A DNA stretch of 63,190 bases, counting the filler. It is 10 parts of 10 records of this genome, joined end to end, with 100 filler letters (N's around TTAATTAATTAA, not from the genome) between each part and the next. Parts side by side here need not be neighbours in the genome. Positions count along the whole stretch, not along the records: positions 45,347 to 50,488 come from SRR7504441_12097; 9 more parts are not named here. One strand, given 5' to 3'. Below, one piece after another: positions 3,734-58,968 of the stretch. A model generated the notes under the pieces. That model had not been told where the DNA came from. It saw only the letters and a list, made by a program, of their open reading frames with translations, and did not search any database. Numbering within the stretch: the stretch's first letter is position 1; every line of letters begins with the position of its first letter. Both the position numbers and the translations under genes were made by a program.

Positions 3734-3833
3734 NNNNNNNNNNNNNNNNNNNNNNNNNNNNNNNNNNNNNNNNNNNNTTAATTAATTAANNNNNNNNNNN
3801 NNNNNNNNNNNNNNNNNNNNNNNNNNNNNNNNN
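3734..3833. other. Artificial contig spacer N44-TTAATTAATTAA-N44
   Basis: Identical 100-nt spacers also at 15829-15928, 23820-23919, 28518-28617, 31670-31769, 45247-45346, 50489-50588, 53732-53831 and 58869-58968. The 12-mer gives stops in all six frames. Confidence 0.98.
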
Positions 3834-3923
3834 GGGACAAGGGCCACTCCATCCTCGCTCAGTTAGACGCTCGCTCACGGCAACAACCCCATCCCGTTGG
3901 ATTTTTCTTCATTTCGTGGGGCG

Positions 3924-6900
3924 ATGGCCAGGCCTCGAACTGGGCTGGTGGTGGTGGTGGCGGTGGGGCTTTGGCTCTTGGCCACCAGCTCGGGCGACGG
4001 CGAGCAGGAGACGGTGGTTGCGCTCGACGGGTCGGCCGATCTCGGGGCCAACATGGCGGACGTGACCGCGCAGCTGCGGCATCGGCCCCAGCTGGCCCAG
4101 ATCCTGCCCCAGCTGCTGATCAGTCTGACCACCAACGCCGGGGGCGACCATGCCAGCGAGGTGCTCAAGCTGACCGACCAGATCCAGGCCAAGATGGTGC
4201 GCGAGTCGGCCGCCGCCGCCAAGGCGCACAAGAGGGAGGCGGCCAAGTGCTCGGCGGCGGTGGCGGCGGCGAACGGTCTTGAGCTAAAGTTCCGCAAGGA
4301 GCGACGGGAGGCCCGCAAGCGGCTGGGGCGGGTGGTGCGCGATCTGGGTCGGACCGGGCTGCAGGCCGGTCTGTCGAGGGAGCGGGTGGCGCATCTCGAG
4401 AGCCGGATCGCCCAGGTTGCCAAAGCCAGAGTGGACGGGCTGGCGACGGTCGAAGCCCGGGAGACGGCGCGGCACCGGGTGCTGCGGAACGTGGCCGATA
4501 AGATATCCTCAGCTTGCAACATGCCCGCGTACCGCGGCTGGCAGGGCTGCAGCCGGGAGGTGGCGGATGCGGTGCAGTCGATCAGGACCACGGATGGCGC
4601 GGTTGGGACGGCCGAGCCGGGGCAACAGTGCGCGCTGCCGTTCCGCAAGACGATCGACGGTGTCGAGCGCACATTCGAGGAGTGCACCACGGAAGGCGAC
4701 GGAAGGAGCGCACATTCGAGGAGTGCAACACGGAGGCCCTGGTGCTGCCTCGACGAGGAATGTAAGGGCAAGTGGGGAAGCTGCGCTCCGGTCACTCTCG
4801 ACCCAGCCCAGGTGCGCGCCGAGGCCCTCCGGGCCAAGAGCAGCTTGCCCGGCTTGCGGCAAGCGTTTGAGGACGAGCGGACTGCTGCCTTCTCGGCAGA
4901 CAAAGACCAGCTGTGGCAACTTGGCGAGTCTCGTGCGTGGACCAAACGGGCCGGCTGGCCGGTGGCCGAAGCTGGACTGGGCCGGGTGACGGTGCTGGCG
5001 GCGGCAGTGTTTGGGGCCGATGCAGTCAAAGGGCAGGCTGCACTGGAAAAGCTGCAGGAACTCAAGTCGGACGCGGCTGGTGAGAGCACGGCAGACCTCG
5101 CGGACTGGCTGTCGGCTGAGGACAAAATGCGGCGGCTGGAGCGGCAGCACGAGGCCGGGGTGGCGCAGGAGGCCAGGGTGCAGGCCCAGTTGGCCATCCG
5201 CGTGGCGCGGTTGGGCCTCGACCAGTCTGGGCACCGCGACGCCCTCGCACAAGTGCGGATACAGCACCGGAAGGCCAAGCGAGCAGCCGACCGGTCGCGG
5301 CTGCGCTGTTGGCGCAAGACGAGTGAGAACGAGCGGCGGATGAGCGCCAGCCGGGGCGACCTGAGCGTGCTCGACCGACTCAGGACACAGTTCCAGACTT
5401 CCCCTCCAAGTTGCCCGGGTGGATGCACCTCGGACGCCAACGGATTCTGCGCGCTCAAACTGGGCAGCGGGCAGCCGTACTGTGCCTGCCGGGCCGGTTA
5501 CTATGGACTCAAATGCGAGTTCCGCAAGTGCCCAGGCTTGGCGATCCCTCCGGAGCCAGCGTTGCAGCGGCTCTGGAAGGCCCCGCCTGAGACCACTTCG
5601 GCAGTGCTGTTTGAAGCGTCCGAGCCGGCGGCGTGCAGCGGACACGGCAGCTGTGACAAGACCAGTGGCCAGTGTACCAAATGTTTCGGCACGATGCAGC
5701 TCTGCAGGCACGCAAACGTGAAGCCTGGCGCCTCGGCTGTCCTTATAGCCGCCAGCAACCAGCCGACCGGCAAGATCACAGTAGATCGGGCATCCGCGCT
5801 GTGCAGGGAGAGCGAGCACTGCCTTGGATTCAGCTTTGCGAGCCCTGCAGGCTACTGGGATGCTACGGGTACCCTGCAGCCGTCTGTGCATAACAAAGCT
5901 TCGCATACGAGCCTTGTGGTGCTGTACGCGGCACTGGGACTCGAGGAGCTGGAGCCATCCGAGTTTGGCATGGATGTGTACCTGAAAACAGAGGGCAGCT
6001 GCCCAAACCTCCGGATGTCCCGCAAGGTCAACCAGAGGGCCGGCACCAAGGCAAGCAAGGTCCAAGGAATGAAGAACGGGGCAAGGCTCACCCTTGAGCG
6101 GGCTAAGGCCGAGTGCCTGAATAACCAGCTCTGTGGAGCTTTCAGCTTCCCTGGACAGCACGGCTTTGTGGACGCGGCTGGTAAGCGGCACATGTGGTTT
6201 GACCAACAGACGAGCAAGGCAGTTGTGGAATTCTATCACTTCCCCGATCCAAAGTCGCTCACACCGCCTGAGGATGGGATGGATCTGTACGTGCTGTCTG
6301 GTCCAGGGACTCTCTGGCTCCAGAATCAGCCGGATTGGATCAGTGAGACTCGCGAGCAGCGCGACCCAGCTGGCTACCTTGATAACAGCTGTGCATGGGA
6401 CTTTGAGGGTGGCGAACTGGGCGGCTGGACGGTGCCAACTGACCTGATGTGCACTGGGGCATTCTTCTCGCAGCCTGCAGCCAAGTCAATGTGTGATGCA
6501 AGCCAGCAGGGTGGTGCCGTCAAGCTTTCAAACATTGAGGTCAATGGCGCGAGTGCCAGTGGCTACACGCAGCTCGAAGGTGGGCTCAAGATAGGTTCGC
6601 AGCTGTTCACAGATAGGCCGTGGAAAATACGAACCGTGGAGGGACCAGAGGAGCAGACTGGCCAGCTGATGGGCCTAGCTGTGCTGAGGGTTCCAGATGC
6701 TGCCAAAGCGCAAGCTCAGACAATCAAATTCTCAGCTGGGATGCCTGTGCAAGTGGTGCTGCTGGTGGATGCCGGCTGGGAGTGGGCAGCTGACCCGAAT
6801 GCTGCATACCCGAGCTGGATGAATGGAAACTTTGAGCGCTGGGCTGACACCAAACTGGATGTCGACGATATCACTGTGTCCATCCACGGTCGGCGACCAA

Positions 6901-9900
6901 TGATACCTTTCATGGGCAACGCTGTCAGCACTGAGGTGGAGATTGGCCCAATTCCTGCTCAAAATCAACTGGCAGTGACTGCAATCGGCGCCTCATCGGG
7001 CCAGGCCATCCAAATCTTGCCTGGGGGTCTGCAAGCTGACGCTCAGCCGTTCACTGACGACACCTCGGTGCACATCGGTGAACTGGGACAAGACGTACTT
7101 GAGGAAGGGCTGCAAGGTGCTGTTCTTCTTCAAGCCCCTGTTGATGGGCGCCAGGAGGATGACATCTCTTTCACAGTGAGTGAGCGCGTGTATGTTTACG
7201 TACTGGTTGACAGCAAGGGGTTTGACGACGAAGCACGCCGAGTTCGGGCACCAGCATGGCTCGAATCCGAGGGGTTGCATGGCTACAGACGTCTGGATGG
7301 CGTCCAGATCCCAATTGATGGTGGAGCAGAAGGCAGACACTTTGCTGTGTTTCGGTCTACAACTCCACTTGCCGGGACCATCAGCCTTGGATCAGAGTGG
7401 TCGAGCAGGGTGGATGAGAGCCAGTTGCTCGGAGAGCCCAAGTCTTCGACTGGGCGCCCATGTGCTGTGCGCAGCCGTGGAGTGAATGTGGGGAAACATG
7501 TATTTGTGGACCAGCCATACACGTTCAGATCTGTTCCAAAACAACTCACTGGAGCCAATCTAGTCATGATCTCGGATGCAGACAAGATGGATGCGCATCA
7601 CACAGTGTCATTCCATTCATCTTCGCCAGTCGACGTTTACCTCGGCCTGGACCCCAGCATTGACAAGCCCCCACCTGGGTTCACCATGACTAGCATGACC
7701 CTCGACGTCGCTGGGCATCCTTCTGGTGGCCTCATACTCAAGGTGGCCAAGTCGCTGGTGCCAATGATGGGCGACGTGAAGATCTCTCAACTGCCTCAAC
7801 TTAACCCCTTCCGAGTTTCCAAGCTCGTCTCCAGTCTCCATGACCAGCCGCTGTCTCTTTCATCGATCAAGAAAGGTGGAACGCTCTATTCCGATTCTCG
7901 AGCTGTGCTAGAACAATTGCCAGAGTCCCTACATTTGGAGGGCCTGCCAGCAGTGGTCGCTACCAACGCAGCACGGGACCATGCACACCTGCTGTCATTC
8001 AACACTAACCAACCTTCAAAGCTTTATGTGCTGCTGGGGATTGGGGCTTCAGGTGTTGATGGTGGTGGATGGGAACTGGTCAGGCGCCTCGCCCCTGAGT
8101 TCAATGAGCTGAAAGACCATCTCAACGGTTCCTCAGTTTATGGAGAGGCGCCTCAACTGTCGTCGAGCAATGCTAGCTTCAGTGTCAAGTTCGACAACAG
8201 GGACTACAACCAGGTGATGATCTCCTCTGGCAACGAGTGGGCCATTCTCCGCCGTGGTGCGCTCGAAAGTGGAGACCACTCTGCAGTGGTGCAATCTTCA
8301 TGCAACGCTGTCCTCGAGACCAACAAGAAGGAAGCATTCGTCGTACAGTGCAGGGCTGGCAGCAAGCAAATGCTGTATAATGAGATGAGTCCCATGCCTG
8401 CTGGCACTAATGTGTTCATCCGCCAGCACGCAACCCATGGCAAGAGCAGCATTGCCTTGGAAGGTGTAGAATGGACATTCAACGCACAACTGGATGGGAA
8501 CAATGGCACGCTGCATGGCAAGATGCTACGAGGTCCTGGCAGATTGGTTGCACAGTCAGGCTATTTGGAAAGCAGTCCAACCAAGCACGACATCAGTGCC
8601 AAGACATTGGAAGTTTGGCTCAGACCAACAGATGTAGATCAGGACGAGGGCTCGGTGATTGCTCTGCACAGTCGTGATGGCAGCTTGGTGGACGCCATAT
8701 CAATCCGTGATCGAAGTTGGGTTATTACGAGTGCCCGAGATGTTCTGTCGAACCCTGTGCTGCAGGGCTCACAGGAGACACAGCCAAACCTTGTACATCT
8801 AGTGGCCACATTCGACGCAGATGGAACCAACACGCTGTATCGCAATGGGAAGGTGTACCGCGCTGCATACAAGCGCCACGACGCCCTCTCCCTTTTCGCC
8901 ACGGGTGCCAAGGTGATTGTTGGTGGCATATCGAGTCAGAAGTTCCAAAGTGTTGTATATCAGGCTACTCTTTACCATCGGGCACTGTCTTCCAACGAGG
9001 TGGTAAGCAACTTTAAGAAAGGGGTTCCCCAGCCCGGAGGTCCATTGCCCAGCTGGCTGGCTGCCCAATTTCAGCCTGCTCTTGGGCCAGATGGTGCCGA
9101 TCTCACTGTAAGGACCGGCAGCACTGTGTATCGGATCCTGGAGTCAAAGAGGCTTCACTCAGGCAAATTCTCGCTGATGGTGCCAAGGCTTACTGTAGCT
9201 TCGCTCCAGAGTCGAGTGCGTGCTCTGACTGAGCGAGCCAGTCACAACCAAGCAGAGCTTTGGAAGCTCAAAGAGGACGAGCAGTTGGCAAATATCAACG
9301 TGACATCTCGGGTTCGAGAGCTCGGTACTGCACAGAACAAGTCCACAGCTCTGCGCAAGGCATTAAAGTCTCGGATGGAACAATTCGCAGTGGCTGCAGG
9401 TACCGCTGTTCGAGTACAAGCAGCGATCCAGCAGGCTAAAGATAGTGCGTTGATTGCCTCTGCATTCAAGGACTTCGCCCAAACACAACTGGAAAATATT
9501 GCGACCGTGCAAGATTCCCATAAGGCTCTGCGCGCAGCTCAGGGGCACTTAAAGCAGTTCCAGCTCGGGTCAATCGATTCAGGGGCAGTTGTAGGCTTAT
9601 TTGGACCTTCTGCCAACTCACGCCGCCTCCAGGCTAGTAGTCCAGAGTCAGCCATCCGTCAGGTTGCAGAGAGCAAGGTCGCTTATAAAATGGCCATGGA
9701 TAAAGCTCAGAGTGGTGCTGCTGTGTTCCGCGAATGGGCCCATACCAAAGCGAATTCAGTTGACAGCCAGAAGGTGGCACTGCAAGACAAATATGCAAAG
9801 GCAAAGACAAAACTGGAAAAAGGCACAGCACAACTGGCAAGATCTATCCAAATGTTTCAATCTGCCGCAGGGCTTCTGGCCAAAGCAAGGAACAAGGTGG

Positions 9901-12900
9901 ACAAGGCCAACTATCAAGCAAAGTTCACCTCAGGAATGGCTGCTGTTGCTGCCGAGAGCGAACTTGGGGAGGCCCTCGAAGGCAGGGCTGCCTCGGCAGC
10001 AACTGCACGCTCTGAAGCAATAGCCGCAGCCAGCACTACGCTGCGCCTCGCGCTCGAGAGTGCTAGCCGAAAGCTCGACAGAACGCGCGAAAAGCACCAG
10101 CGCAGGCTTCTTGGCATGCTCAGGGCGCATGGAAAGATAGGCAGGGTTAGAGTGAGCACTGCAATGCTTCAGTCGTCCTTGAAACAGTTGGCAAAGACGA
10201 AAGAGCTCATCACCCAGGTTGTCAAGGCATCTGATCAGGATCTGGGAGAAGCCTCAGATGCCGATATGGCGACTGCCCAAGAGCACTTGCAGGAGTCGAA
10301 CAGTATCGTCAAGCAGTCCAAGGACGCACTGCAGGCTGTCCTTGGCCTGCAAATCAAAAGTTCAGCCCAACTGCGCGACGCCAAGGCGAGGCAAATGCAG
10401 GCCCAGTCAACCTTTAAGCAGTTCCAAGGGGTAGCAAACCAGGTCTGGACAGCCCATCTACAACGAGAAGGTCGTTTATATGAGCTCCAAGGTAAGGTGA
10501 GCGAGACCAAGCACCGAGTAGCACTTCTTAATAAGCACAAGGCGCAGGCCACAGGGCAGCACATACAGCACCTGACAAGTATTGCACAGCCAGTGGTAGC
10601 CTTACGACCAATTCTTGGGGCTGGGTTGGTGACCATGGCTGTGCCAGCTATTCCATCGCAGATTATAGCGCTGAAGCCAACTATGGTGAACACGGTGGTG
10701 TTGGTCAAACCAGTGGCTTGTGACGAGACAACAATGCAGGGCAGCTACTTCCTGCGAAGTGACTTCTCTGCGGCTGCAGAAGCGCATGGGCACTCTCCAA
10801 AGGGAGTGATCGAGAGTCCAGCATTTGTTGTGGGAAGCGGTGCTAGTCTGTCATTCAAGGTTGCAGGGGGCAGTCATCAGTGGAGCGGGGGCAATCAAGT
10901 TGCGATGGTTGGATGCAACTCACATGCACACGCTGGCATCACGGCAGTGTCGCTCGAAAAGCTCTATGCAGGCTCCTGGGTTCGAATCATGTCTGCATCT
11001 GGGGAGGACAGCTCGAGTTTCAGGCAGGTCGACTGGGACCTGAATGCATACAGTGGGGATACGCTCCGGCTGCGAGCTTATGACCTGGCCCATGGCGCAT
11101 GGGGTTACATTGCACTAGACGACGTGAAGATTGAGGGTTGTCGGGCTGCAGAAAGCGGTGAAGGAGTGATTAAGCTTGACAACCCAGCTACAAGCACGCT
11201 CGATGGAAACGGCACTCGCTCGGGTGGAAAGGCTTACACAGTGCAGTCGAACAACATGCAGCTTGTGTACAATATGCTGGCGGATCATCATGTCGACAGG
11301 GTCCGAATTCTCGCAGGTGATGATGAGAATCTGGAGATCAATGTAGCATGGTCTGATCATGTTGCTGGCCCATGGAACGCCATCGAGCCACCAGACTTAG
11401 CGATCAACAAGGGCGCCTGGGGGACTTTTGACACATTCAGCGTGCAAAGAGCGCAATTCTGGCGGGTGCAAGCACAAGGACCAAGTACAGCACAGGTGAT
11501 CTCGTTGCGTGAAGTCGAGTTCCATGGCAAATCCGGCCAGTTAGCCTCCCCGGTAGACAGTTACATAAGGTACCCAGCAAAGGAGCTTACAGGGACACCG
11601 ATCTGGCAGCAGGAGACCACACTGGAGCGCTGTGCTGCCCTGTGCAACGCGCAGGCCAACTGCAAGTCTTTCAACTACCATTCTGAATGTACCCTCAACT
11701 CTGCTGACCAAATCTCAGCACCTGGAAATTTGATAGACTCAGAGCAAGAGTATTTCGAGAAGGCTGCCAGCAGGTGGCAGTCTGGCAAACTCCAAGCCTG
11801 CGAGAGGCATTTGTGTCCGTTGGATGGCAAGTGCAGCGGGCGGGGCAAATGTGACACAAAGACAGGTCGGTGCAACTGCAATCAGAACTCCTATGGTGAC
11901 CACTGCCAGTTCCTCAAATGCCCCGGCGAAAAACGAGTAGTTCTGAGGAAGTCGAACCCAGAAGTGTGCAATGGGATGGGCCGCTGTAACCGGCGGACTG
12001 GCAAGTGCCGCTGTGTTGAAGGCCGAAGTGGACCTGGCTGCAACCACCGCAAATGTCCAGGTGGATGCACACGAGCATCACAGGGTACCTGCCACCCCGA
12101 CGGCACCTGCACCTGCAAAGCAGGATACCACGGTAAATCGTGCAGCCGGAGGTCATGTCCTGAGGACTGCAATGGCAAGGGTCAATGCGACTCTAATACT
12201 GGCAAGTGTGTCTGCCAGCCAGGATACAGTGGCGCTGAATGCGCGGCGGACAAGCCATGCCAGTCTCTAGTGATGAACTGGTGGGATTCCTTCAATGTGC
12301 GAGGCTGGTCCACTTGTCCTCAGTCGTCACTCCTAACTGGACTCTATATAGACAGCCAACCGTGCCATGGACTGTACTGCATTGAGATGGCCCGTTGCTC
12401 GGTGCCTTGTGCAGGCGCCAAGCAGAGGAATATAGGCAGCTGTTATGTGGCTGACTGGACAACTTCGATGTCAGAAGAAGGTTGGTCCAAGTGCGACACA
12501 AACTATTTTCTGCAGGGATTTTACAGGGAAGCCTGCCACTCGCTCTACTGCTTAGAGAGGGCCAAGTGCTGTCAAGTTGACAAGGCTGAATGGAACGACT
12601 GTGAGCATATCAATTGGGGTGGCGCTTTCAGCCGTGAAGGCTGGGCGCACACCAGTGGCACCGGGTTCCTCACAGGAATGTTTAGGACTGGTTCCAAGTC
12701 TGACTCAGGTAATGGAATCAACCAGATACAGCGGGCCTCGCAATGCCACTTCAGACAGCGCCCACGGCAAGTTGTCTGTGGGGACGGGCTTCGAGAGGAT
12801 AAGGAAAGTTGTGACGATGGGAATGGGCAGGATGGAGATGGTTGCTCGAGTGAGTGTACTGTGGAGCATGGCTGGCGCTGTCGGGATCTGGACATTCCGT

Positions 12901-15828
12901 TGGAGGTATCTGGGGCACAGTCCTCGACAGGAAATGCTGTCAAGCTGATTGGTGGAGGGCTTGGAGCTGGCAAAAAGTACTACACTGACCAGGCATTTAC
13001 CATCAAGGCCACTCCAGTTCTCGGAGGAGCGACTACAATCGCGACTGCAGATGCCGACAAGACCGCTGACTGGACACTGCAGTTTACTGTAAACCAATTA
13101 GTGCATCTTTGGGTCCTTGTAGACAGCGCTACTCTAGCAGCCAATAAGGGCACGCCTGCCTGGCTCAAGGGCACATTCAAGCGAACATCGCATGAGATTC
13201 CAGTCACAGGGCGTGGCCAGGCTGCCAAGTTTGTGGTGTTCCAGTCCAAGCACCAACACAAGGGCGATATCAGCATTGGTCCAGCACCAGCGCAGACCCA
13301 GTCTGGGGCCAACCACATTGTGGCTATCACCCGGGCTGCGTGTGACCCAGTAGTGCCATACCGGAAGGGCTCGGCCAAGCTAATGAATAAGATGCGATAC
13401 ACCGAGCTCGAGGACCAGCTGCGGCAAGGGAAGGCTGTGTGTGGCGAGGGATACCACGTATGCAACTTCCAAGAAGTGACCATTCATGGAGTGATTCACA
13501 GAGAAACTCTGGCAGGCGGAAGAGGCTGGATTGTAGGTGGATTTCCCAACTCTGATAGCAACCGGCGGGCCATCTGGAGTGGCCAAGACAGCACCCAGTG
13601 CCGACAGTCTCAAGCGCCTCGCTGGTGGGGCAAGTGGGGACCATATACTGGTCGAGTGCACTGCACGAATAAGAACCACAGGGACCGAGTGGCGTGCTGC
13701 TCAGATGCCCCCGCCCGAGTAGAGGCAGCGGTTAGATTGCAATATCCCAAAGTGCCGTACACGAGCCTCAAGGCGATGTTGGACCGTGACTGGCAGCATG
13801 GCAATTGTGGGACTGGCTGGCATGTGTGTAATTACGCAGAGGCCTCTATCTACGGCGCCATGCTGGGTCACACATTCAAGGGTGAGCAGCATGCTTGGAT
13901 TGTAGGGGGCGTGGGCACCTCCGAGAAGCCAAGCCGGTCTGTGTGGAACGACCAGTCCTCGGGCTTTTGCCGATCAGGCCGCTATCCAGCCTGGTGGTCG
14001 AAGTTTGAGAACTATCATGGAGCGGTGCATTGCTTTGACGGATCCTCAGTCCAGTTCCCTACTGCTTGCTGCAAGGACAGGAGACAGCTGCCTGCGAGTA
14101 GGCACGCTCATTTGGTCAAGAAGGTAGGCCGGCTGCGGTACAATGAGTTGGAGCATCTGCTCAACAAAGACTGGAAGGGCGCTCGAGCCTGTGGACCAGA
14201 CTGGCATGTGTGCAATTACCAGGAGGCGGTTGCCTATGGCAGCTACATGCACGCGAGCTTGGGCGAGTCAGCTTGGCTGGTGGGTGGATTCTCCAACTGG
14301 GCTCCTCACAGACGTTCTCTTTGGAATGGCCAAGACTCGACCCAATGTGATCACAAGAGGGCCCCGCTATGGCACGCTGGCAAGTGGGGGCCATACTTTG
14401 GCCAAGTTCGCTGCGGGTTGGCCAGCGATAAAGCGCCAGTGGCCTGTTGCCGGAATGCCGGGTTTCCAAGTAAGAGCATTGGGGAGAGCAACATTGCCAA
14501 ATATGCACAAGTCACCACTTCAAGTACACTACGAGCTGATGGGGCTGAAAAATTGGTAGACGGCGAGACCGAATTCAGTGCTGAGGGTAGCTGGTCCGTC
14601 TCGCAGCCAGTGGGCCAGTATGCTGTGTTCGACTTTGGTGCGCCTGTGGAGATTGTAAACATCATAGTCTACAACCACCACGACATCAGTGGCACAGATG
14701 TCAAGAGCCTTACTGTGCAAACCTCGAACGATGGAGTTGCTTGGCAAACTCTCAAAGCAGACCTGCCGCTGTTAGACAGTGGTGGCAGCTCGCCTAATCC
14801 AGGGCAGCCACTGTACCTGCTCGAGACAGCCAGGTTTTGGCGGGTTGAAATCACAGCCGTGTTCGATTCGACCCAGGGCAGTAGCGGACTATCAGAAGTG
14901 CAGCTATTACAGCAAGGCAGAAGCACCGCGCTCGACTTGTTTGCAAAACATTCGGGGCATGGGTTGCTACCGGAAGTATACTCAACTTTGACTGAGCAAG
15001 GCCCACTGCAGTGCAGCGATCACTGTGCAATAGATGCCACTTGCAAGGCATTCAATTATAAGGCCTCAAGCCGCGAGTGTGGCCTGGCTGCTAAGAACCG
15101 AAACGGCGGTGCTGGCTATGCTGCAAATGCTGAGTATGACTACTATGAGAAGATAGTGGACGTGCATAGTTCTGGGTACTGCGAGTTTGATATGAGTGAC
15201 TACCGGGGTATGGAGAGTGTGACCAAATCAGGCACGAGCTGCCAGCGGTGGACTGTGCAGCTGCCTCATCGACACAGCTTCACTCCGGAGCGCTACCCTG
15301 GGCGTGGACTTGGAGAACACAACTATTGTCGCAATCCAAACCAGGATCCGAAGGGTGCCTGGTGTTACACCACCTCGACGACAAACCGGCAGGAGTATTG
15401 TGAAATTGCCAGGGATACCGAATGCCCAGTGACGTACTCGGCCAATATCAAGGGGAATGGAGGCAACGGGAAGCGGACCCCTGAGCTACAGATACACTCA
15501 GAGACTGGTGGGGTCAATGCACGACTCGAATCTCGCCACTGCAGTACGCCACATGAGGTTTACCTGGAGTTGCGTACCCAGAGGCACAGTCAAAGTTGGG
15601 GGATAGGCATGAACGATGACCTCAACCTGTGGATATGCTATGGTCGCTTGGGCACAATGAACAAAGATAAGTGTGCATTGCGAATAGAGCCATCAGGTAC
15701 GGTCCACATCCTAGGATACTCGGCATTTATGGCCAACACCCAACTTTTGGCACGCGAGGAACTTGCTGAAGCACAGACAGAGCCACTCCTGATGCTGCAG
15801 GAGACATGCACAGTGACAGTGTGTGGCT
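3924..15828 (+). CDS. Giant secreted mosaic protein (>3960 aa, 3' truncated): coiled coils, FN2-like, tenascin-type EGF, PAN/apple, LamG, F5/8 discoidin, Myxococcus Cys-rich repeat, kringle and unnamed repeats
   Basis: Single stop-free frame. Signal peptide MARPRTGLVVVVAVGLWLLATSSG; CALPF..TFEECT..RPWC (FN2); CSGHGSC and CNGKGQCD (EGF); TLEVWLRP..HLVATFD..LYRNG (LamG); CGDG..ESCDDGN..DGDGCS (Cys-rich repeat); YRG..CQRW..NYCRNP..WCYT (kringle). Confidence 0.9.
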
Positions 15829-15928
15829 NNNNNNNNNNNNNNNNNNNNNNNNNNNNNNNNNNNNNNNNNNNNTTAATTAATTAANNNNNNNNNNNNNNNN
15901 NNNNNNNNNNNNNNNNNNNNNNNNNNNN

Positions 15929-23819: not shown

Positions 23820-23919
23820 NNNNNNNNNNNNNNNNNNNNNNNNNNNNNNNNNNNNNNNNNNNNTTAATTAATTAANNNNNNNNNNNNNNNNNNNNNNNNN
23901 NNNNNNNNNNNNNNNNNNN

Positions 23920-28517: not shown

Positions 28518-28719
28518 NNNNNNNNNNNNNNNNNNNNNNNNNNNNNNNNNNNNNNNNNNNNTTAATTAATTAANNNNNNNNNNNNNNNNNNNNNNNNNNN
28601 NNNNNNNNNNNNNNNNNGCCTAGGCTCGACTTCACGAATAAATGTAGCTACTGTTTACAAAAAGGTTAACTGATTGCTCACAGAATTGTTGCTACGAGTA
28701 CGTAGTTTGGTTGATCCGG

Positions 28720-31669: not shown

Positions 31670-31769
31670 NNNNNNNNNNNNNNNNNNNNNNNNNNNNNNN
31701 NNNNNNNNNNNNNTTAATTAATTAANNNNNNNNNNNNNNNNNNNNNNNNNNNNNNNNNNNNNNNNNNNN

Positions 31770-45246: not shown

Positions 45247-45566
45247 NNNNNNNNNNNNNNNNNNNNNNNNNNNNNNNNNNNNNNNNNNNNTTAATTAATT
45301 AANNNNNNNNNNNNNNNNNNNNNNNNNNNNNNNNNNNNNNNNNNNNTCCGAAGTTGCGGGAAGAAAGAGAAATTCAGCACAGCCCGCTATTTTTCACGCA
45401 TGTCTGATGGTAGCACGTATCAAAATACTAAACAAGGAGGACTAGAACAGCATCTTTATGCAACCGAGGAGTCGATCACGGGTAGATCACGGGGCATTAT
45501 CCGATGGCATACGCAGTAACGGTGCAGAGTAACCCGACGGGTCAATCACTTAGTCAATCACTCAAA

Positions 45567-46784: not shown

Positions 46785-49123
46785 ATGGCCGCATCTAGAT
46801 ATGGAGGCGCCGACGATACCCCGCCCGAGCTGCAAAATGCGTGCGAGTTCATCAAGGACCGGTGCCGCTCTCCCCCTCCCCCGCCCCCCCGCCCCCGCCC
46901 TACGCCCTGCCCCCCCGACCGCCTTCCTTGCCCTTCGGCCAGCCGGCGGGCCACTCGCGGCGTCTCGGCGGCGACCGGCTGCGGAGCACCCGGGAGCCGC
47001 CCGGCCGTCTAGCCACGCGGCGAGGGTCGCCCACGGCACATCAGGCCGCCTGTCGTGCCCGTCGCCACAGCCGACAGATCAGCGAAGCGCTAAGCCTTGC
47101 AGGAGCGCTCTAGCCAGGGGTCTGGCCGGGGGCACAACAGGGTGGCGAGGAAAGACGGGGCGGTGAGCGAGGGCGCGCGGGTGTCGTGGCGATGGGGCGG
47201 GTCCTGACGTCCCTCAGCTCCGGCCGTTGCGGCACGATCACTCCAAGCTGAACCGGCTCTAAACTTGAAAGATCACTTTGAGTGCCCGAAACTGCGGTGT
47301 CGAAACAGAACCGGCAGACGGTGGCAGGCTGACCGCACCGAGTTGGCTGGGCCACGAGCCACCAGAACCGTTGATCTGATCTCTGTTACGCTGGAGTCTT
47401 TCGCAGCAGCGTTGCACCGCGAGTAGAGCTTGTCGTATCAGCAAGCTGCCCACCCCCTTCCCCGCGTGCCCCTCCCCGTCCATCCCCCGCTGTGCTCCTG
47501 ACCCGCTGCCCCGCAGGCTCTACTTTGCCTCGTTCCGCTCGCAGCCTCGACGGTCTGTCGAATACCACTACTTCTGCACCGACAACGAGCTGGTCTACGA
47601 ACCGTTCTTTGACGACTTTGGGCCGCTCAACTTGGCAATGCTTTACCGGTACCTCCCGCGGGCTGGCGGTGACTGATCAGCCGGCGGCAGGTTTGTGTGC
47701 CACCTCGCGGATAAGCTCAAGGATCGTGCGCTCGCCGACAAGAAGATTGTTTACTACTCATCGATGGACCAGAACAAACGGTGCTTCCGTTGATTTCTGT
47801 CGGTCTCGGCTGAGCTTGGACGGGCAGGGCGGTCGCCGCCTGCCTGATCGGGACCTTTGCAGTGATTCATCTCAAACAAACCCCTGAAGAGGCGTTCCGC
47901 CCGCTCATGGGTACTGCCTGGCTGGCTAATCGCGCATTGAGCGGTCGACTCAGGCGCCCAGCCACCATTCAAGCACTTTAAAGACGTCTACGGCGGCTCA
48001 TGGAACTGTACGCTGCTCGACTGCTTCCGCTCAATAGACACTGCTATGAAGCTGGGCTGGTTCAGAATGGATAACTTCAACGTCCAGGAATACGGTGTTG
48101 CCTAATCGGGCAATCGCTTAGGTTGACATCTGTGAACAGAGTACTACGAGCGGGTAGAGAACGGCGATCTCAACTGCATCGTCCCCGGCAAGTTTGTAGC
48201 CTTTAGCGGCCCTGCGGCCCGGAGGACCGACGTGAGCCTGGGACCCGAGGACTACATCCCGATCTTAAAACGGTTCGGGGTGACGGCCGTGGTCAGACTT
48301 AACAAGAAGGTGGCTATAAATAGCACGGCGGTTGTGGCTCAGCCCGGGGCAGGTGTATGACCGCAAGAAGTTCCTGGACGCCGGGATCAAGCATTACGAT
48401 CTTTACTTCGTGGACGGCGGCAACCCGTCTGAAGCGATTCTCAAGCAATGGCTTGACATCTGCGAGAACGAGCCCGGAGCGATCGGCGTGCACTGCAAGG
48501 CTGGGCTTGGACGGACTGGAGTGTTGAACGCGTGTTACCTTATGAAGCATTACAGGGTCACAGCCAACGAGCTGATCTCTTGGTTCCGGACCTGTCGACC
48601 AGGTCTTAACAGACCCTTCCCGATTAGGCAATGAGTATATGTTAACAGGGTCGGTGATCGGGCCGCAGCAGCAGTTTATAAAGGAGATGGAGCCCAAGAT
48701 GTGGGCGGAGGGCGAGGTGCCAACCCTCGTCCAAATAAGGAAATAACAATATGTTAACAGGCGTACCGTCGGAGAAACGGGCCCAATCCACCCAAGGGCA
48801 GCCCCGAGCTCCCGCCGCCCCCGGCCGGCTGGTACGACAGCGATCCTCCGTCCGACGCGCAAGAGGACGAGCTGGTCCGAAGCATGAGTGGAATGACAGT
48901 CTCACAGCAGTCCGTGGGCTACCAGCCCGCCAACCCTGCCCAGAGCCCTAGCATGTACGGCGCCGCCAGAGTGCCGCACACCCAGCAGCCGGCGCGGGCC
49001 GGCGCGGGCTACACGTCGCAGCAGCAGTACAGCGGGTACACGAGGCCTACTGCCAACATGTCGAGTACAAGGAGTTCGCAATACCCTCAGCCAGTGAGGT
49101 CAAACGCGTCGCGGTACTACTAA
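46785..49123 (+). CDS. CDC14: Cdc14 dual-specificity phosphatase; 8 introns
   Basis: [85 protein letters not shown]. Confidence 0.96.
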
Positions 49124-49325: not shown

Positions 49326-49369
49326 CATGCTCTTGGGGGACGTTTCACATGCTCTTGGGGGACGTTTCA
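49326..49369. repeat. Perfect tandem duplication of a 22-mer
   Basis: CATGCTCTTGGGGGACGTTTCA x2. Confidence 0.95.
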
Positions 49370-50488: not shown

Positions 50489-50588
50489 NNNNNNNNNNNN
50501 NNNNNNNNNNNNNNNNNNNNNNNNNNNNNNNNTTAATTAATTAANNNNNNNNNNNNNNNNNNNNNNNNNNNNNNNNNNNNNNNNNNNN

Positions 50589-53500
50589 TTGTTTAACAAT
50601 GAATGGTTTCTTGGGAGCGACTTGGTCGACATTCTTAATTGTCGGGAGAGTGGTTGGGAGATTTGCAGCTGCCTTGAGATCAGGTGTGCCTTTCTTTGTA
50701 ATGTGATTCGAGGCACTGCCTTCCATTGTAATGCCTTTCGAATCGCCGTTGTATCTCGTGGTATTATCCATGGTATATCCATCGTTGATGATAGCATCTT
50801 GCGCCTTCTTCGTTCGCTTTGATACATAAGTGGAAGCACTCAGCTTCATGGCGGTTTTCGATTTGGTTTGGATCTTTTCTGCCGATGAGAAATCACGCCA
50901 TGGATCAAATTCTGACTGAAACGGGATTCCGAGCACAGCAAGCTGTATGGCGAGCTCACGGAGTTGCCGTTCGCTGGAGCCAGCATCAGCATTGTTGACA
51001 GAAAGCAGATTGACATCGCGTTTATCCTTCAGAATCGACGAGGCTAGCTTCTTAAGGGTGTGCCGAGGCCCAAGCTCCACAAATGTCCGAGCGCCATCAT
51101 CATACATTTGTTTTATTTGTGCGTCGAAGTGTACCGAACTTGTCATGTGCTGGGAGAGAGTCGCAAGGACAGGTGCAGATGTCGAATATGGAGCAGCTGA
51201 TGTGTTGCTGTACACCTGTGGTCCGTCTCCCAGAAGAGCGTCGCCAATCTGAGTCTCGAGGTGCTTTGCAAATGCGTCAGCTGCTGGTTGCATGAGAGGG
51301 GTATGAAACGCATCGCTGACCTTGAGTGGGACCACCCGAAGTCCCCTGCTTGTCAGGACCTTGCTGAAGCTGTGCACTGCTGCTGTGGTTCCAGAAATCA
51401 CAACCTGGGAAGGACTGTTGTGGTTAGCCATCCAGACATCTGTGGGGAAGTCTCCAATTTGGTCTACAGAAGCACCAAGCACTGCTGCCATGGCACCGCC
51501 ACTGGCGTGCTTCTCCATCAGCATACCACGCTGACAGGTGATGTTGAATACTTGATTGTGGTCCAGGAAGGTATTGGCATATAGAGCAGCAATCTCCCCA
51601 AGGCTATGGCCGGCGACAAAATCAGGCACAACCCCAGCAGCCTTGAAAATGTCAAAGCATCCAACAGAGCAGGCCACTGTGGTGAGTTGTGCTAGCTTGG
51701 TATTATTGAGCTGTGTTGCATCAACGGTTTTCTCATCTTCGCTGTGATATTTTTCGCGAGGATATAGCACTTGAGATGGCTGGAACCCATGCTTAGCTGC
51801 AGCTCTGTCCATAGCAGTGAGAGCCTCGCGGAATGCAGGCCAATTCATGGCACACTCGTCAAACATGTTCTTGTACTGTGAACCCTGACCAGAGAAGAGG
51901 AAGGCAAGCTTGCCCTGAGCACTGCGTTGGCGGAAGATCACGCCGTCGGACTCCCAGCTGTCCTTTTGGGGCTCAGCCTGCAGGAGAGCAATGCAGTGTT
52001 CAAGAGCAGAAACGCACTGTTCAGCACTTGTGGCAAGAAATCCTAGACGTGGACCCTCAGCAATCGGGGCTGACAGAGAAAAGGCTTGGCAGAACTCCTC
52101 GAACCCCAAGAGAACAGACTTTGCTTGCTGCTGACAAAGTCCTACAAGTGCAGGGACGTCAGATGCAGACATCACCACTGGAACAGGTAGTGCATGGACA
52201 CGGTATGCCTCTGCATGCTCTGCTTCGTATTCCTCGACAACACAATGATAGTTTGCTCCACCAAAGCCAAATGAGCTGACAGCAGCCATTCTCGGCAGAT
52301 GAGCGCCATCTGAGCCCACGGGTGTAATCCATGGGCGATTGCTAGTGTTGAGATATAGCGGTGAGTCTTGGATGCTAGAGCCATCCCGTAGAACTGGCGG
52401 CGTACTCACATGGATTGTCTGAGGCAGGATCTTGTGCTTGAGAGCAAAGATGACCTTTAGTAACCCAGCACAGCCCGCCACAGCCTTCAAGTGGCCAATG
52501 TTGCTCTTGATGCTTCCTACGGCAACGCGTTCATGGCCAACTCCTTGGAACGCATTCTTGAGAGCTGTCAACTCGATGGCATCCCCAACAGGTGTCCCGG
52601 TGCCATGGCCTTCCACCAATGTGATGGATGAAGGATCCACGCCGGCTCTTGCCCAGGCCCGCCGAATCGCTTGCTCTTGTCCCTCGATCGTTGGTGCATA
52701 GATGCCAGGGGCTCGCCCATCGCTAGATGAAGCACAGCCACGAATCACAGCATGTATCTTGTCGCCATCAGCCTCAGCATCTGCAAGCTTTTTAAGAACA
52801 AACATGACACTGCCTTCACCAATGAGCATGCCACCAGTGTCTTTATCGTATGCTGACACGTTCTGCTTGGTGCTGAATACAGGCGTCTTGGAAAAAGCCA
52901 TAAACATTCCAATACTGCAGTCTGTGCATGTTGCACCAGCAATCATTGTACGGCAGTCTCCATCAAGCAGCTCATTGATAGCGACTTTGATTGCCACGAG
53001 CGAACTGGCACATGCAGCATCCACGACACAATTCATACCATCCAGGTTGAAGACATTTGTGATGCGGCCTGCAGTAACATTCCCTAAGAACCCGGGGAAA
53101 GAGTCAAGCCTCCATTCTGGGAAGTGGGCTTTGTACTTGTCCACAGCCTTTTCGACGTCTGCCTCAGGCATACCCATCTTGCGCAGAACTTTGTCGACCA
53201 CCACGTAATTCAAGCGGGAGTAGAACTCGTTTGAAGACTTTTGGCCACCACCAATGCCCAAAACACAGCCGATATTATGTTTGGTTTTGCCATCAGTAGG
53301 AATACCAGCATCAGTGAGAGCCTCCTTGACCTTCACCAGACTCAAAGTCTGATTCACATCCATGTCTTCAACTTGCAGCATGTTTACATTGAACACTCTT
53401 GGATCGAAATCGAAGGGATCGATAAAACCGCCTCGTGTGCAGTATATCTTGTCTGGCACACGCTTGTCTGGATCAAAGTAGGCTGTCACATCGACACGGT

Positions 53501-53731
53501 CGTCTGGAAGGTCACTGATAGAATCCAAGCCATCACGAATCATCTCCCATGACTCTTTGATTGTACCGCCACCAGGGAGGGCGCAAGAATAACCTATAAT
53601 AGCGATTCGGTTGTCTTGCTCCGGGGGGGGATCCGCAAACCTTGGAAGAGAATTGGCAGAGGGAGATGGAACATGCTGGGCTTGAGGGCCTGAAGCAGTA
53701 GTGGGCTGGCTGGGCTGGATGCTCGGAGCAG
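50589..53731 (-). CDS. pfaA: PUFA synthase (PfaA/OrfA-type iterative PKS) fragment: KS + malonyl-CoA acyltransferase; truncated at both ends
   Basis: RIAIIG, DKIYCTRGGFI, FPEWRLDSFPGFLGNVTAGR, VVDAACASS, EGHGTGTPVGD, KSNIGHLK, SFGFGGANYH (KS); FSGQGSQY, GHSLGE, AFHT (MAT). Closely recalls thraustochytrid OrfA. Confidence 0.92.
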
Positions 53732-53911
53732 NNNNNNNNNNNNNNNNNNNNNNNNNNNNNNNNNNNNNNNNNNNNTTAATTAATTAANNNNNNNNNNNNN
53801 NNNNNNNNNNNNNNNNNNNNNNNNNNNNNNNTCACGATCACCTGTTATAAATATGAAGGTAAGCTTATACTGTAAGCTAACTGCTTACAATTCAACTCAA
53901 AGTAGTCAAAA

Positions 53912-58868: not shown

Positions 58869-58968
58869 NNNNNNNNNNNNNNNNNNNNNNNNNNNNNNNN
58901 NNNNNNNNNNNNTTAATTAATTAANNNNNNNNNNNNNNNNNNNNNNNNNNNNNNNNNNNNNNNNNNNN

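Follow-up and report, generated by a model that had tools for sequence, protein, structure and literature searches.

Two neighbouring short introns of a Cdc14-type phosphatase gene as a candidate case of same-gene intron duplication

Similarity of two neighbouring introns

A 63,190-base window of eukaryotic DNA (~58% G+C, very short introns) contains a Cdc14-type dual-specificity phosphatase gene, two neighbouring introns of which, here called A and B, resemble each other while the exons around them do not. This similarity is genuine, is limited to the introns and stands out as exceptional in the window, the term being used throughout for the whole stretch of DNA that was analysed. We infer that common descent is its cause: A and B would be paralogous, one being a copy of the other or both going back to one source intron, and would have diverged since. 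A probability of roughly 0.55 may be attached to this reading. The coordinates of the features discussed are collected in Table 1.

When the last 30 nucleotides (nt) of the two introns are set against each other without gaps, 23 of the 30 positions are identical, and the final 12-mer, ATATGTTAACAG, is followed by the same first exon base, a G, in both cases. This match had been put forward in the first-pass annotation of the window, and its position as well as its letters proved to be correct. The exact 12-mer has two copies in the whole window, both of them in A and B, and the pair is the top direct repeat in a repeat search (32 nt, 78%, spacing 112). When the introns are aligned globally, 31 of 44 aligned positions match and one gap of 2 nt is needed. 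The pentamer ACCCT, previously listed as a shared upstream element, is indeed present in both introns (48613-48617 in A, 48723-48727 in B), but it does not occupy the same register relative to the 3' end, being 2 nt out. The 18 nt upstream of the 12-mer, taken alone, agree at 11 positions; 31 of 50,000 shuffles do as well, and so do 6 of the 703 intron pairs described below. A blastn-short comparison of A with B returns the 12-nt block only (E 0.11), and near-identity over most of the intron is not reached.

In an alignment of introns together with exons, the likeness begins at the GT and ends one base past the AG. The exon flanks give ordinary scores, the observed values being reached by 693 and 4406 of 5000 shuffles, respectively, and the encoded peptides are unrelated, so that the earlier description of the flanking exons as unrelated is upheld. 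Exon 7, which lies between the two introns, has no significant similarity either to the end of exon 6 or to the start of exon 8. Since the likeness extends over the intron from its GT to its AG and is not shared by the exons, the unit copied would be the intron and not a gene segment.

Comparison with background introns

The background consisted of 38 introns, namely the seven short introns of the Cdc14 gene and 31 further short introns predicted by an ad hoc dynamic-programming gene finder of our own, which relies on codon bias and splice sites and which recovered all seven of the Cdc14 introns. Among the 703 pairs of these introns, A and B have the highest 3'-anchored identity (23, as against a mean of 10.6 with a standard deviation of 2.8 and a next highest value of 20). 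When the CAG is excluded, 20 of 27 positions remain identical, a score attained by 0 of 200,000 mononucleotide and 0 of 50,000 dinucleotide shuffles, and by none of 20,000 shuffles even if each is scored in the most favourable of 17 registers. A background independent of gene models was obtained from every GT..CAG segment of the window with a length of 40-50 nt, 1880 in total; 6 of 2,997,643 random pairs of these pseudo-introns reach 20/27, and the pair maximum among the AT-rich ones (108 segments) is 17/27. The top pair is also an adjacent pair, and adjacent pairs account for 26 of the 703.

With 0.41 and 0.39 G+C, A and B have the highest AT content of all 38 introns, an outlying composition which they have in common and which speaks for their relationship. 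Many predicted introns of other genes are, by contrast, very rich in GC (up to 0.87), with GGGGCAG or GGGCCAG as their last letters, while the 3' introns of the Cdc14 gene are AT-rich; this points either to two compositional classes of introns or to some of the predictions being false. An artefact of composition as the source of the A-B score was considered separately and is ruled out, because neither the mono- and dinucleotide shuffles nor the AT-rich pseudo-introns ever reach it.

Chance resemblance of two AT-rich short introns, aided by splice and branch constraints and by a broad scan, draws some credit from the shortness of the sequences (44-46 nt) and from the exact matches of 12-13 nt which Cdc14 introns have with unrelated sites of the window (12 nt in the case of I4 or I5). 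GC-rich introns of unrelated genes likewise agree without a break over as many as 10 nt at their 3' ends (e.g. CCCGGGGCAG), and the putative branch A at -15 in both A and B adds a forced component to their similarity. Nevertheless, the probability per pair is ~2e-6 according to the pseudo-introns and <2e-5 according to the shuffles, and multiplication by 703 pairs still leaves it below about 0.015. As the AT-rich pseudo-introns never exceed 17/27, and the probability that the top pair would happen to be an adjacent one is 26/703, chance appears to be a distinctly unlikely explanation.

The first-pass annotation had further proposed that introns are homogenised to nearby sites. The other 25 adjacent pairs, however, match at 4-12 of 27 positions, as unrelated pairs do, and a general homogenisation of neighbours finds no support within this window; the mean 3' match is 8.17 for same-gene pairs vs 7.79 for different-gene pairs. 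In a narrower form, two unrelated introns might have been made alike by short-tract gene conversion, and the sharp, perfect 13-nt block beside more diverged sequence is of the kind that such an event could leave. Gene conversion, however, needs prior homology, which unrelated introns of 44 nt would lack, the upstream similarity is graded rather than block-like, and the remaining adjacent pairs bear no sign of the process; we regard it as very improbable indeed.

Gene structure and relatives

The window is not one stretch of a chromosome, being composed of ten contigs joined by nine identical linkers. Since the ten contigs are separate and merely strung together, gene neighbourhood across the linkers carries no meaning. 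Introns A and B are located on the contig at 45347-50488, where the gene runs from the ATG at 46785 to the stop codon at 49121-49123. Its assignment to Cdc14 is based on the protein matches of exon 6 (48353-48602): the search gave 1074 matching proteins with Cdc14 Pfam domains or names, the closest of which are transcriptome proteins with 89-90% identity. Approximately 200 nt downstream of the stop codon, a 22-nt unit, CATGCTCTTGGGGGACGTTTCA, is perfectly duplicated in tandem at 49326-49369.

Exon junctions were established by three-frame reading, from the upstream sequence and by tblastn with four close orthologue proteins (P0001, P0002, P0003 and P0005). The orthologue proteins, encoded on transcript-like contigs of ~1.5 kb, read uninterrupted through ...CRPG[ST]VIGPQQQF... 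and ...AEG[DE]AYRR..., and because these transcript-derived sequences are unbroken at both junctions, introns A and B together with their exact borders are confirmed. Both introns have GT..AG borders and an AG|G context.

Table 1. Coordinates of the Cdc14-type gene, its introns, the blocks shared by introns A and B, and the linkers of the window
Feature	Position	Strand	Length	Remarks
Cdc14-type dual-specificity phosphatase gene	46785-49123	+		9 exons, 8 introns
Intron 1	46862-47514	+	653 nt	
Short intron	47649-47690	+		one of seven short introns (42-47 nt)
Short intron	47781-47827	+		one of the seven
Intron 4 (I4)	47911-47953	+		one of the seven; GTnnTGCCT and AATCGC at the same offsets as in I5
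Intron 5 (I5)	48095-48139	+		one of the seven; ends ATCTGTGAACAG, 10/12 identical to the shared block; carries TTGCCTAATCGGG
Short intron	48310-48352	+		one of the seven
Intron A	48603-48648	+	46 nt	one of the seven; phase 1; GC 0.41; interrupts a conserved motif, unbroken in orthologues (CRPG[ST]VIGPQQ)
Shared block ATATGTTAACAG|G, 3' end of intron A	48637-48649	+		exact match to its twin
Exon 7	48649-48716	+	68 nt	between introns A and B; encodes (G) and 22 further residues
Intron B	48717-48760	+	44 nt	one of the seven; phase 0; GC 0.39; between AEGE and AYRR
Shared block ATATGTTAACAG|G, twin, 3' end of intron B	48749-48761	+		exact match
Linkers	3734-3833, 15829-15928, 23820-23919, 28518-28617, 31670-31769, 45247-45346, 50489-50588, 53732-53831, 58869-58968			44 N + TTAATTAATTAA + 44 N

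The presence of introns in relatives was judged by proxy, from protein matches, and the nearest relatives are represented by transcripts. Two relatives on longer contigs, P0011 (441 amino acids, 8.8 kb contig) and P0017 (311 amino acids, 9.9 kb contig), have identities of 78-80% for exon 6. Both are single open reading frames (ORFs) which cross the A and B sites, so that the two introns are absent in 2 of 2 long-contig relatives and are not universal in the group. Of the short-intron sites, at least the last three in P0017 and the last six in P0011 are crossed unbroken, those of A and B included. The protein P0011 starts with 12 non-homologous residues just before RALADKK, whereas the transcript proteins of its clade are homologous there; the ORF thus seems to read through from an intron at another position. 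Meanwhile P0019 (152 amino acids) agrees fully with the longer P0023 as far as ...EPKM, after which it diverges and comes to an end, as would be expected if that relative had an intron ~16 nt before the B site, the splice placement being deduced from the residues. The layouts of P0011, P0017 and P0019 taken together indicate that the intron positions of the Cdc14 gene differ among relatives, and this turnover speaks in favour of the copying reading. An exon-8 protein search for short genomic ORF fragments of closer relatives at near lengths found nothing.

Splice signals and structure

Thirty-two of the 36 other predicted introns end in CAG, one (I5) in AACAG and none in TTAACAG. The motif yT[GA]A[CTG], with its A at -13 to -20, was found in 17 of these 36 introns, and in 4 of the 5 other validated Cdc14 introns the A stands at -14 or -15. 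In A and B, the A of TTAAC is only 4 nt away from the 3' end; to judge by the sequence, the likely branch sites are ATGAG and ATAAC, respectively, with the A at -15 in both. The earlier claim that the likeness goes beyond splice consensus is borne out both by the missing TTAACAG ends and by the failure of shuffles to reach 20/27.

Because TTAAC recalls the branch consensus of U12-type introns, this type was also considered. Introns of the U12 type have the 5' splice site (G/A)TATCCTT and the branch sequence TCCTTAAC about 10-15 nt from the 3' end. The 5' ends of A and B, GTCTTAAC and GTGCCAAC, are unfit for such a type and the A of TTAAC lies too close to the intron end, so that it is ruled out. 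Other candidates were likewise rejected: a general 3' consensus, as a TTAACAG end occurs in none of the 36 other introns and the usual branch A is at -13 to -20; a segmental duplication of intron and exon, as the similarity is lost right after CAG|G and the exons are unrelated; and a tandem duplication of an AGGT-containing exon segment, as blastn-short searches with A and B gave no match in the neighbouring exons.

Intron A has TTAACAG near both of its ends (GTCTTAACAG... and ...TGTTAACAG; 48603-48612 and 48640-48648), and the two copies pair weakly in the predicted fold. A transposon with target-site duplication was rejected as well: as the RPG|SVIG junction is conserved, there is no space in which this repeat could have stood in the ancestral exon.

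Neither intron folds with extra stability when compared with its shuffles (minimum free energy, MFE, -4.4 and -3.0 kcal/mol, z 0.07 and -0.35 for A and B, respectively), and the fold of the 176-nt region with both introns is not better than that of shuffles either (z -0.29). The search against Rfam gave no match on the contig, and Tandem Repeats Finder detected no array across the two introns.

These results bear on the possibility that A and B are unrelated by descent and carry the same functional 3' element (ATATGTTAACAG, including the palindrome TGTTAACA), such as a splicing-regulator site that co-regulates intron removal around the 68-nt exon 7, or a sequence by which the two 3' ends pair. 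The perfection of the 12-nt block, with the rest about 60% identical, which is the chief argument here, and the self-complementary nature of TGTTAACA would suit such an element, and so would the consequences for the product: skipping of exon 7 would shift the frame, while retention of intron B would lead to a stop after 9 codons and the truncated product would keep the whole catalytic domain. However, the upstream 18 nt are similar too and contain no evident motif, the block is present in 0 of the 36 other introns and nowhere else in the window, and, as described above, both folding and Rfam provide nothing in its favour. A shared cis-element is, in our opinion, unlikely.

Introns 4 and 5 and the search for a wider family

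The preceding pair, I4 and I5, had also been singled out in the first-pass annotation on account of GTnnTGCCT and AATCGC. The two motifs do stand at the same offsets, but the resemblance of the pair (14/25 identical) is not convincingly above background, being equalled by 5 of the 703 pairs, the others of which come from unrelated genes, and by 22 of 20,000 shuffles; as a sign of relationship it is weak and hardly convincing.

The intron I5 has a different peculiarity. The sequence TTGCCTAATCGGG at 48098-48110 is a perfect 13-nt reverse complement of positions 48619-48631 in intron A. The local Smith-Waterman score of this inverted match is 26, which 1 of 5000 shuffles attains, and blastn against the window gives an E value of 0.028, the match being drawn from 1406 comparisons. 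The hairpin of I5 which includes the inverted match also takes in the 5' splice site (MFE -13.3 kcal/mol, z -2.0). Together with the end of I5, the inverted match may be due to chance, or it may be a trace of a common origin of three introns or of copying in reverse orientation. In the latter case, short introns or pieces of them would be actively copied, now or recently, into nearby sites of the same gene in this protist lineage, with I5, A and B (3 of the 8 introns) going back to one progenitor and the I5-A match representing reverse-orientation copying. Such a trace would be expected under templated break repair rather than under reverse splicing. This broader proposal seems rather doubtful and we consider it decidedly improbable.

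No further copy of A or B was found in the 63 kb window (10 contigs) with the exact 12-mer and blastn-short. Their lengths of 46 and 44 nt are ordinary in comparison with the 37-75 nt of the other predicted introns. With no other copy, ordinary length and no excess of structure, the introner-like character which the first-pass annotation had suggested for these introns is not supported within this window, while intron copying as such remains best supported for A and B.

It might still be proposed that a dispersed introner-like family twice supplied an insertion to the Cdc14 gene, independently, and that A and B are what is left of these members after decay and are not mutual copies. A, B and perhaps I5 have in common their AT-richness, the ATnTGTnAACAG end and the 13-nt inverted match, and introner-like elements are reported to decay fast into ordinary-looking introns (PMC3609843). 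On the other hand, ten contigs failed to provide another member, the length is typical of the genome and no stable structure is present, unlike in fungal introner-like elements, and the TTAACAG repeat of A, as shown by the RPG|SVIG junction, is no target-site duplication. An origin from a dispersed family is therefore regarded as quite improbable.

Proposed origin and points against it

If A and B are indeed paralogous, a copy would have entered the same gene again at an AG|G site, at a distance of 68 nt. The two sequences would since have drifted apart, acquiring one or two small indels and retaining about 70% identity, whereas the region from the branch to the 3' splice site would have been kept identical, probably as the functionally constrained part. 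Such a copy could have arisen by two routes. An excised intron may have reverse-spliced into the same transcript, reverse transcription and recombination then fixing it in the genome; alternatively, a nearby intron may have been copied at the DNA level by templated insertion during double-strand-break repair, selection keeping those copies that splice. The data are compatible with both routes, and with either intron having been the source of the other.

A number of points weigh against this origin. The identity of ~70% is far from that of the introns published as "near-identical", and descent is read from 44-46 nt; the perfect 12-mer, with ~60% identity in front of it, could just as well be due to a functional element common to both introns. 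The absence of A and B in the two long-contig relatives fits gain here as well as loss there. Other ways of scoring set the pair apart much less clearly: the plain global score of A-B, though the highest, is 15 vs 14 for GC-rich pairs of unrelated genes, and the end-trimmed, stringent local Smith-Waterman score is 24, with GC-rich pairs from unrelated genes at 24-26. The 10-nt runs shared by such introns and the exact matches of I4 or I5 elsewhere in the window, both mentioned above, belong here as well. Moreover, 31 of the 38 introns of the null set are unvalidated predictions, and the pair was singled out by a scan, which entails a look-elsewhere cost beyond the window.

Other genes of the window

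Three further coding regions of the window deserve mention. An uninterrupted ORF of ~4005 codons (3867-15884, + strand) encodes Kringle, PAN, EGF/teneurin-type, F5/8 type C and laminin-G-like domains, and its product resembles a giant secreted or adhesion-type protein; no intron is predicted in this ORF, as against eight in the Cdc14 gene. An intronless ORF on the opposite strand (50592-53621, -) with ketoacyl-synthase and acyltransferase domains is a fragment of a type I polyketide or fatty-acid synthase, both ends of which are cut by linkers. The window also harbours a conserved Utp7/BING4 gene, which matches a transcriptome protein at 71%, its best named matches being chytrid fungi with 54-56%.

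Comparison with known systems

The origin of new spliceosomal introns is still debated, and cases with a nameable source are few, amounting to 14 unambiguous events described along with a model of intron transposition (PMC3443670) and to four pairs in Oikopleura (PMC3879977). If the common descent of A and B is true, they would provide an independent example outside animals, fungi and green algae, and a genome in which the introns of the Cdc14 gene differ from those of relatives would be worth mining for more cases. Were local copying true in this lineage, it would offer a natural system for reading the mechanism of intron gain from many young copies. The present evidence, however, is one diverged pair and not a demonstrated process.

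The closest parallel in animals is provided by Oikopleura dioica (Denoeud et al. 2010, as related in PMC3879977 and PMC4122922), where four near-identical intron pairs were found among ~75,000 introns (PMC3879977). Each pair belongs to a single gene, and the explanation given is reverse splicing, by which an existing intron would spread to a new site of the same transcript. As in that case, two spliceosomal introns of the same gene are alike here while most introns of the genome are not. The Oikopleura pairs, however, are nearly identical, whereas A and B agree at about 70% and are thus older or less certain; furthermore, the two sites here are candidate new positions at most, and our comparison covers the introns of the window.

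In fungi, 82 introns in 24 species were classified as "same gene duplication", about half of them being accompanied by duplicated exons and the other half possibly transposed within the transcript (Collemare et al. 2013, PMC3609843). A and B are like the members of this class in that the similar introns are limited to one gene and have ordinary length and folding energy, and, as in the half ascribed to transposition, they are not flanked by duplicated exons. They differ from them in that the fungal introns were near-identical by BlastN (PMC3609843), a search by which A and B would probably be missed.

Introners, known from Micromonas and, as introner-like elements, from Dothideomycete fungi, occur in tens to thousands of copies in unrelated genes (PMC3488318, PMC3879977, PMC3609843). 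The sharing of intron sequence by copying, and the decay of copies to ordinary-looking introns, would be common to them and to A and B; but the fungal elements are ~2x as long as regular introns and have a stable predicted structure (PMC3609843), while A and B form a pair within one gene, have normal length and show no structure.

The intron gains attributed to break repair in Daphnia share with the second route considered above a DNA-level placement of sequence at a break and short border repeats, A and B lying in AG|G contexts. Those gains, however, are independent of one another and have no recognised source, whereas the putative source here is a neighbouring intron, and there is no direct repeat beyond AG|G. 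In view of these comparisons, A and B are probably not introners but an older member of the known class of same-gene intron duplications.

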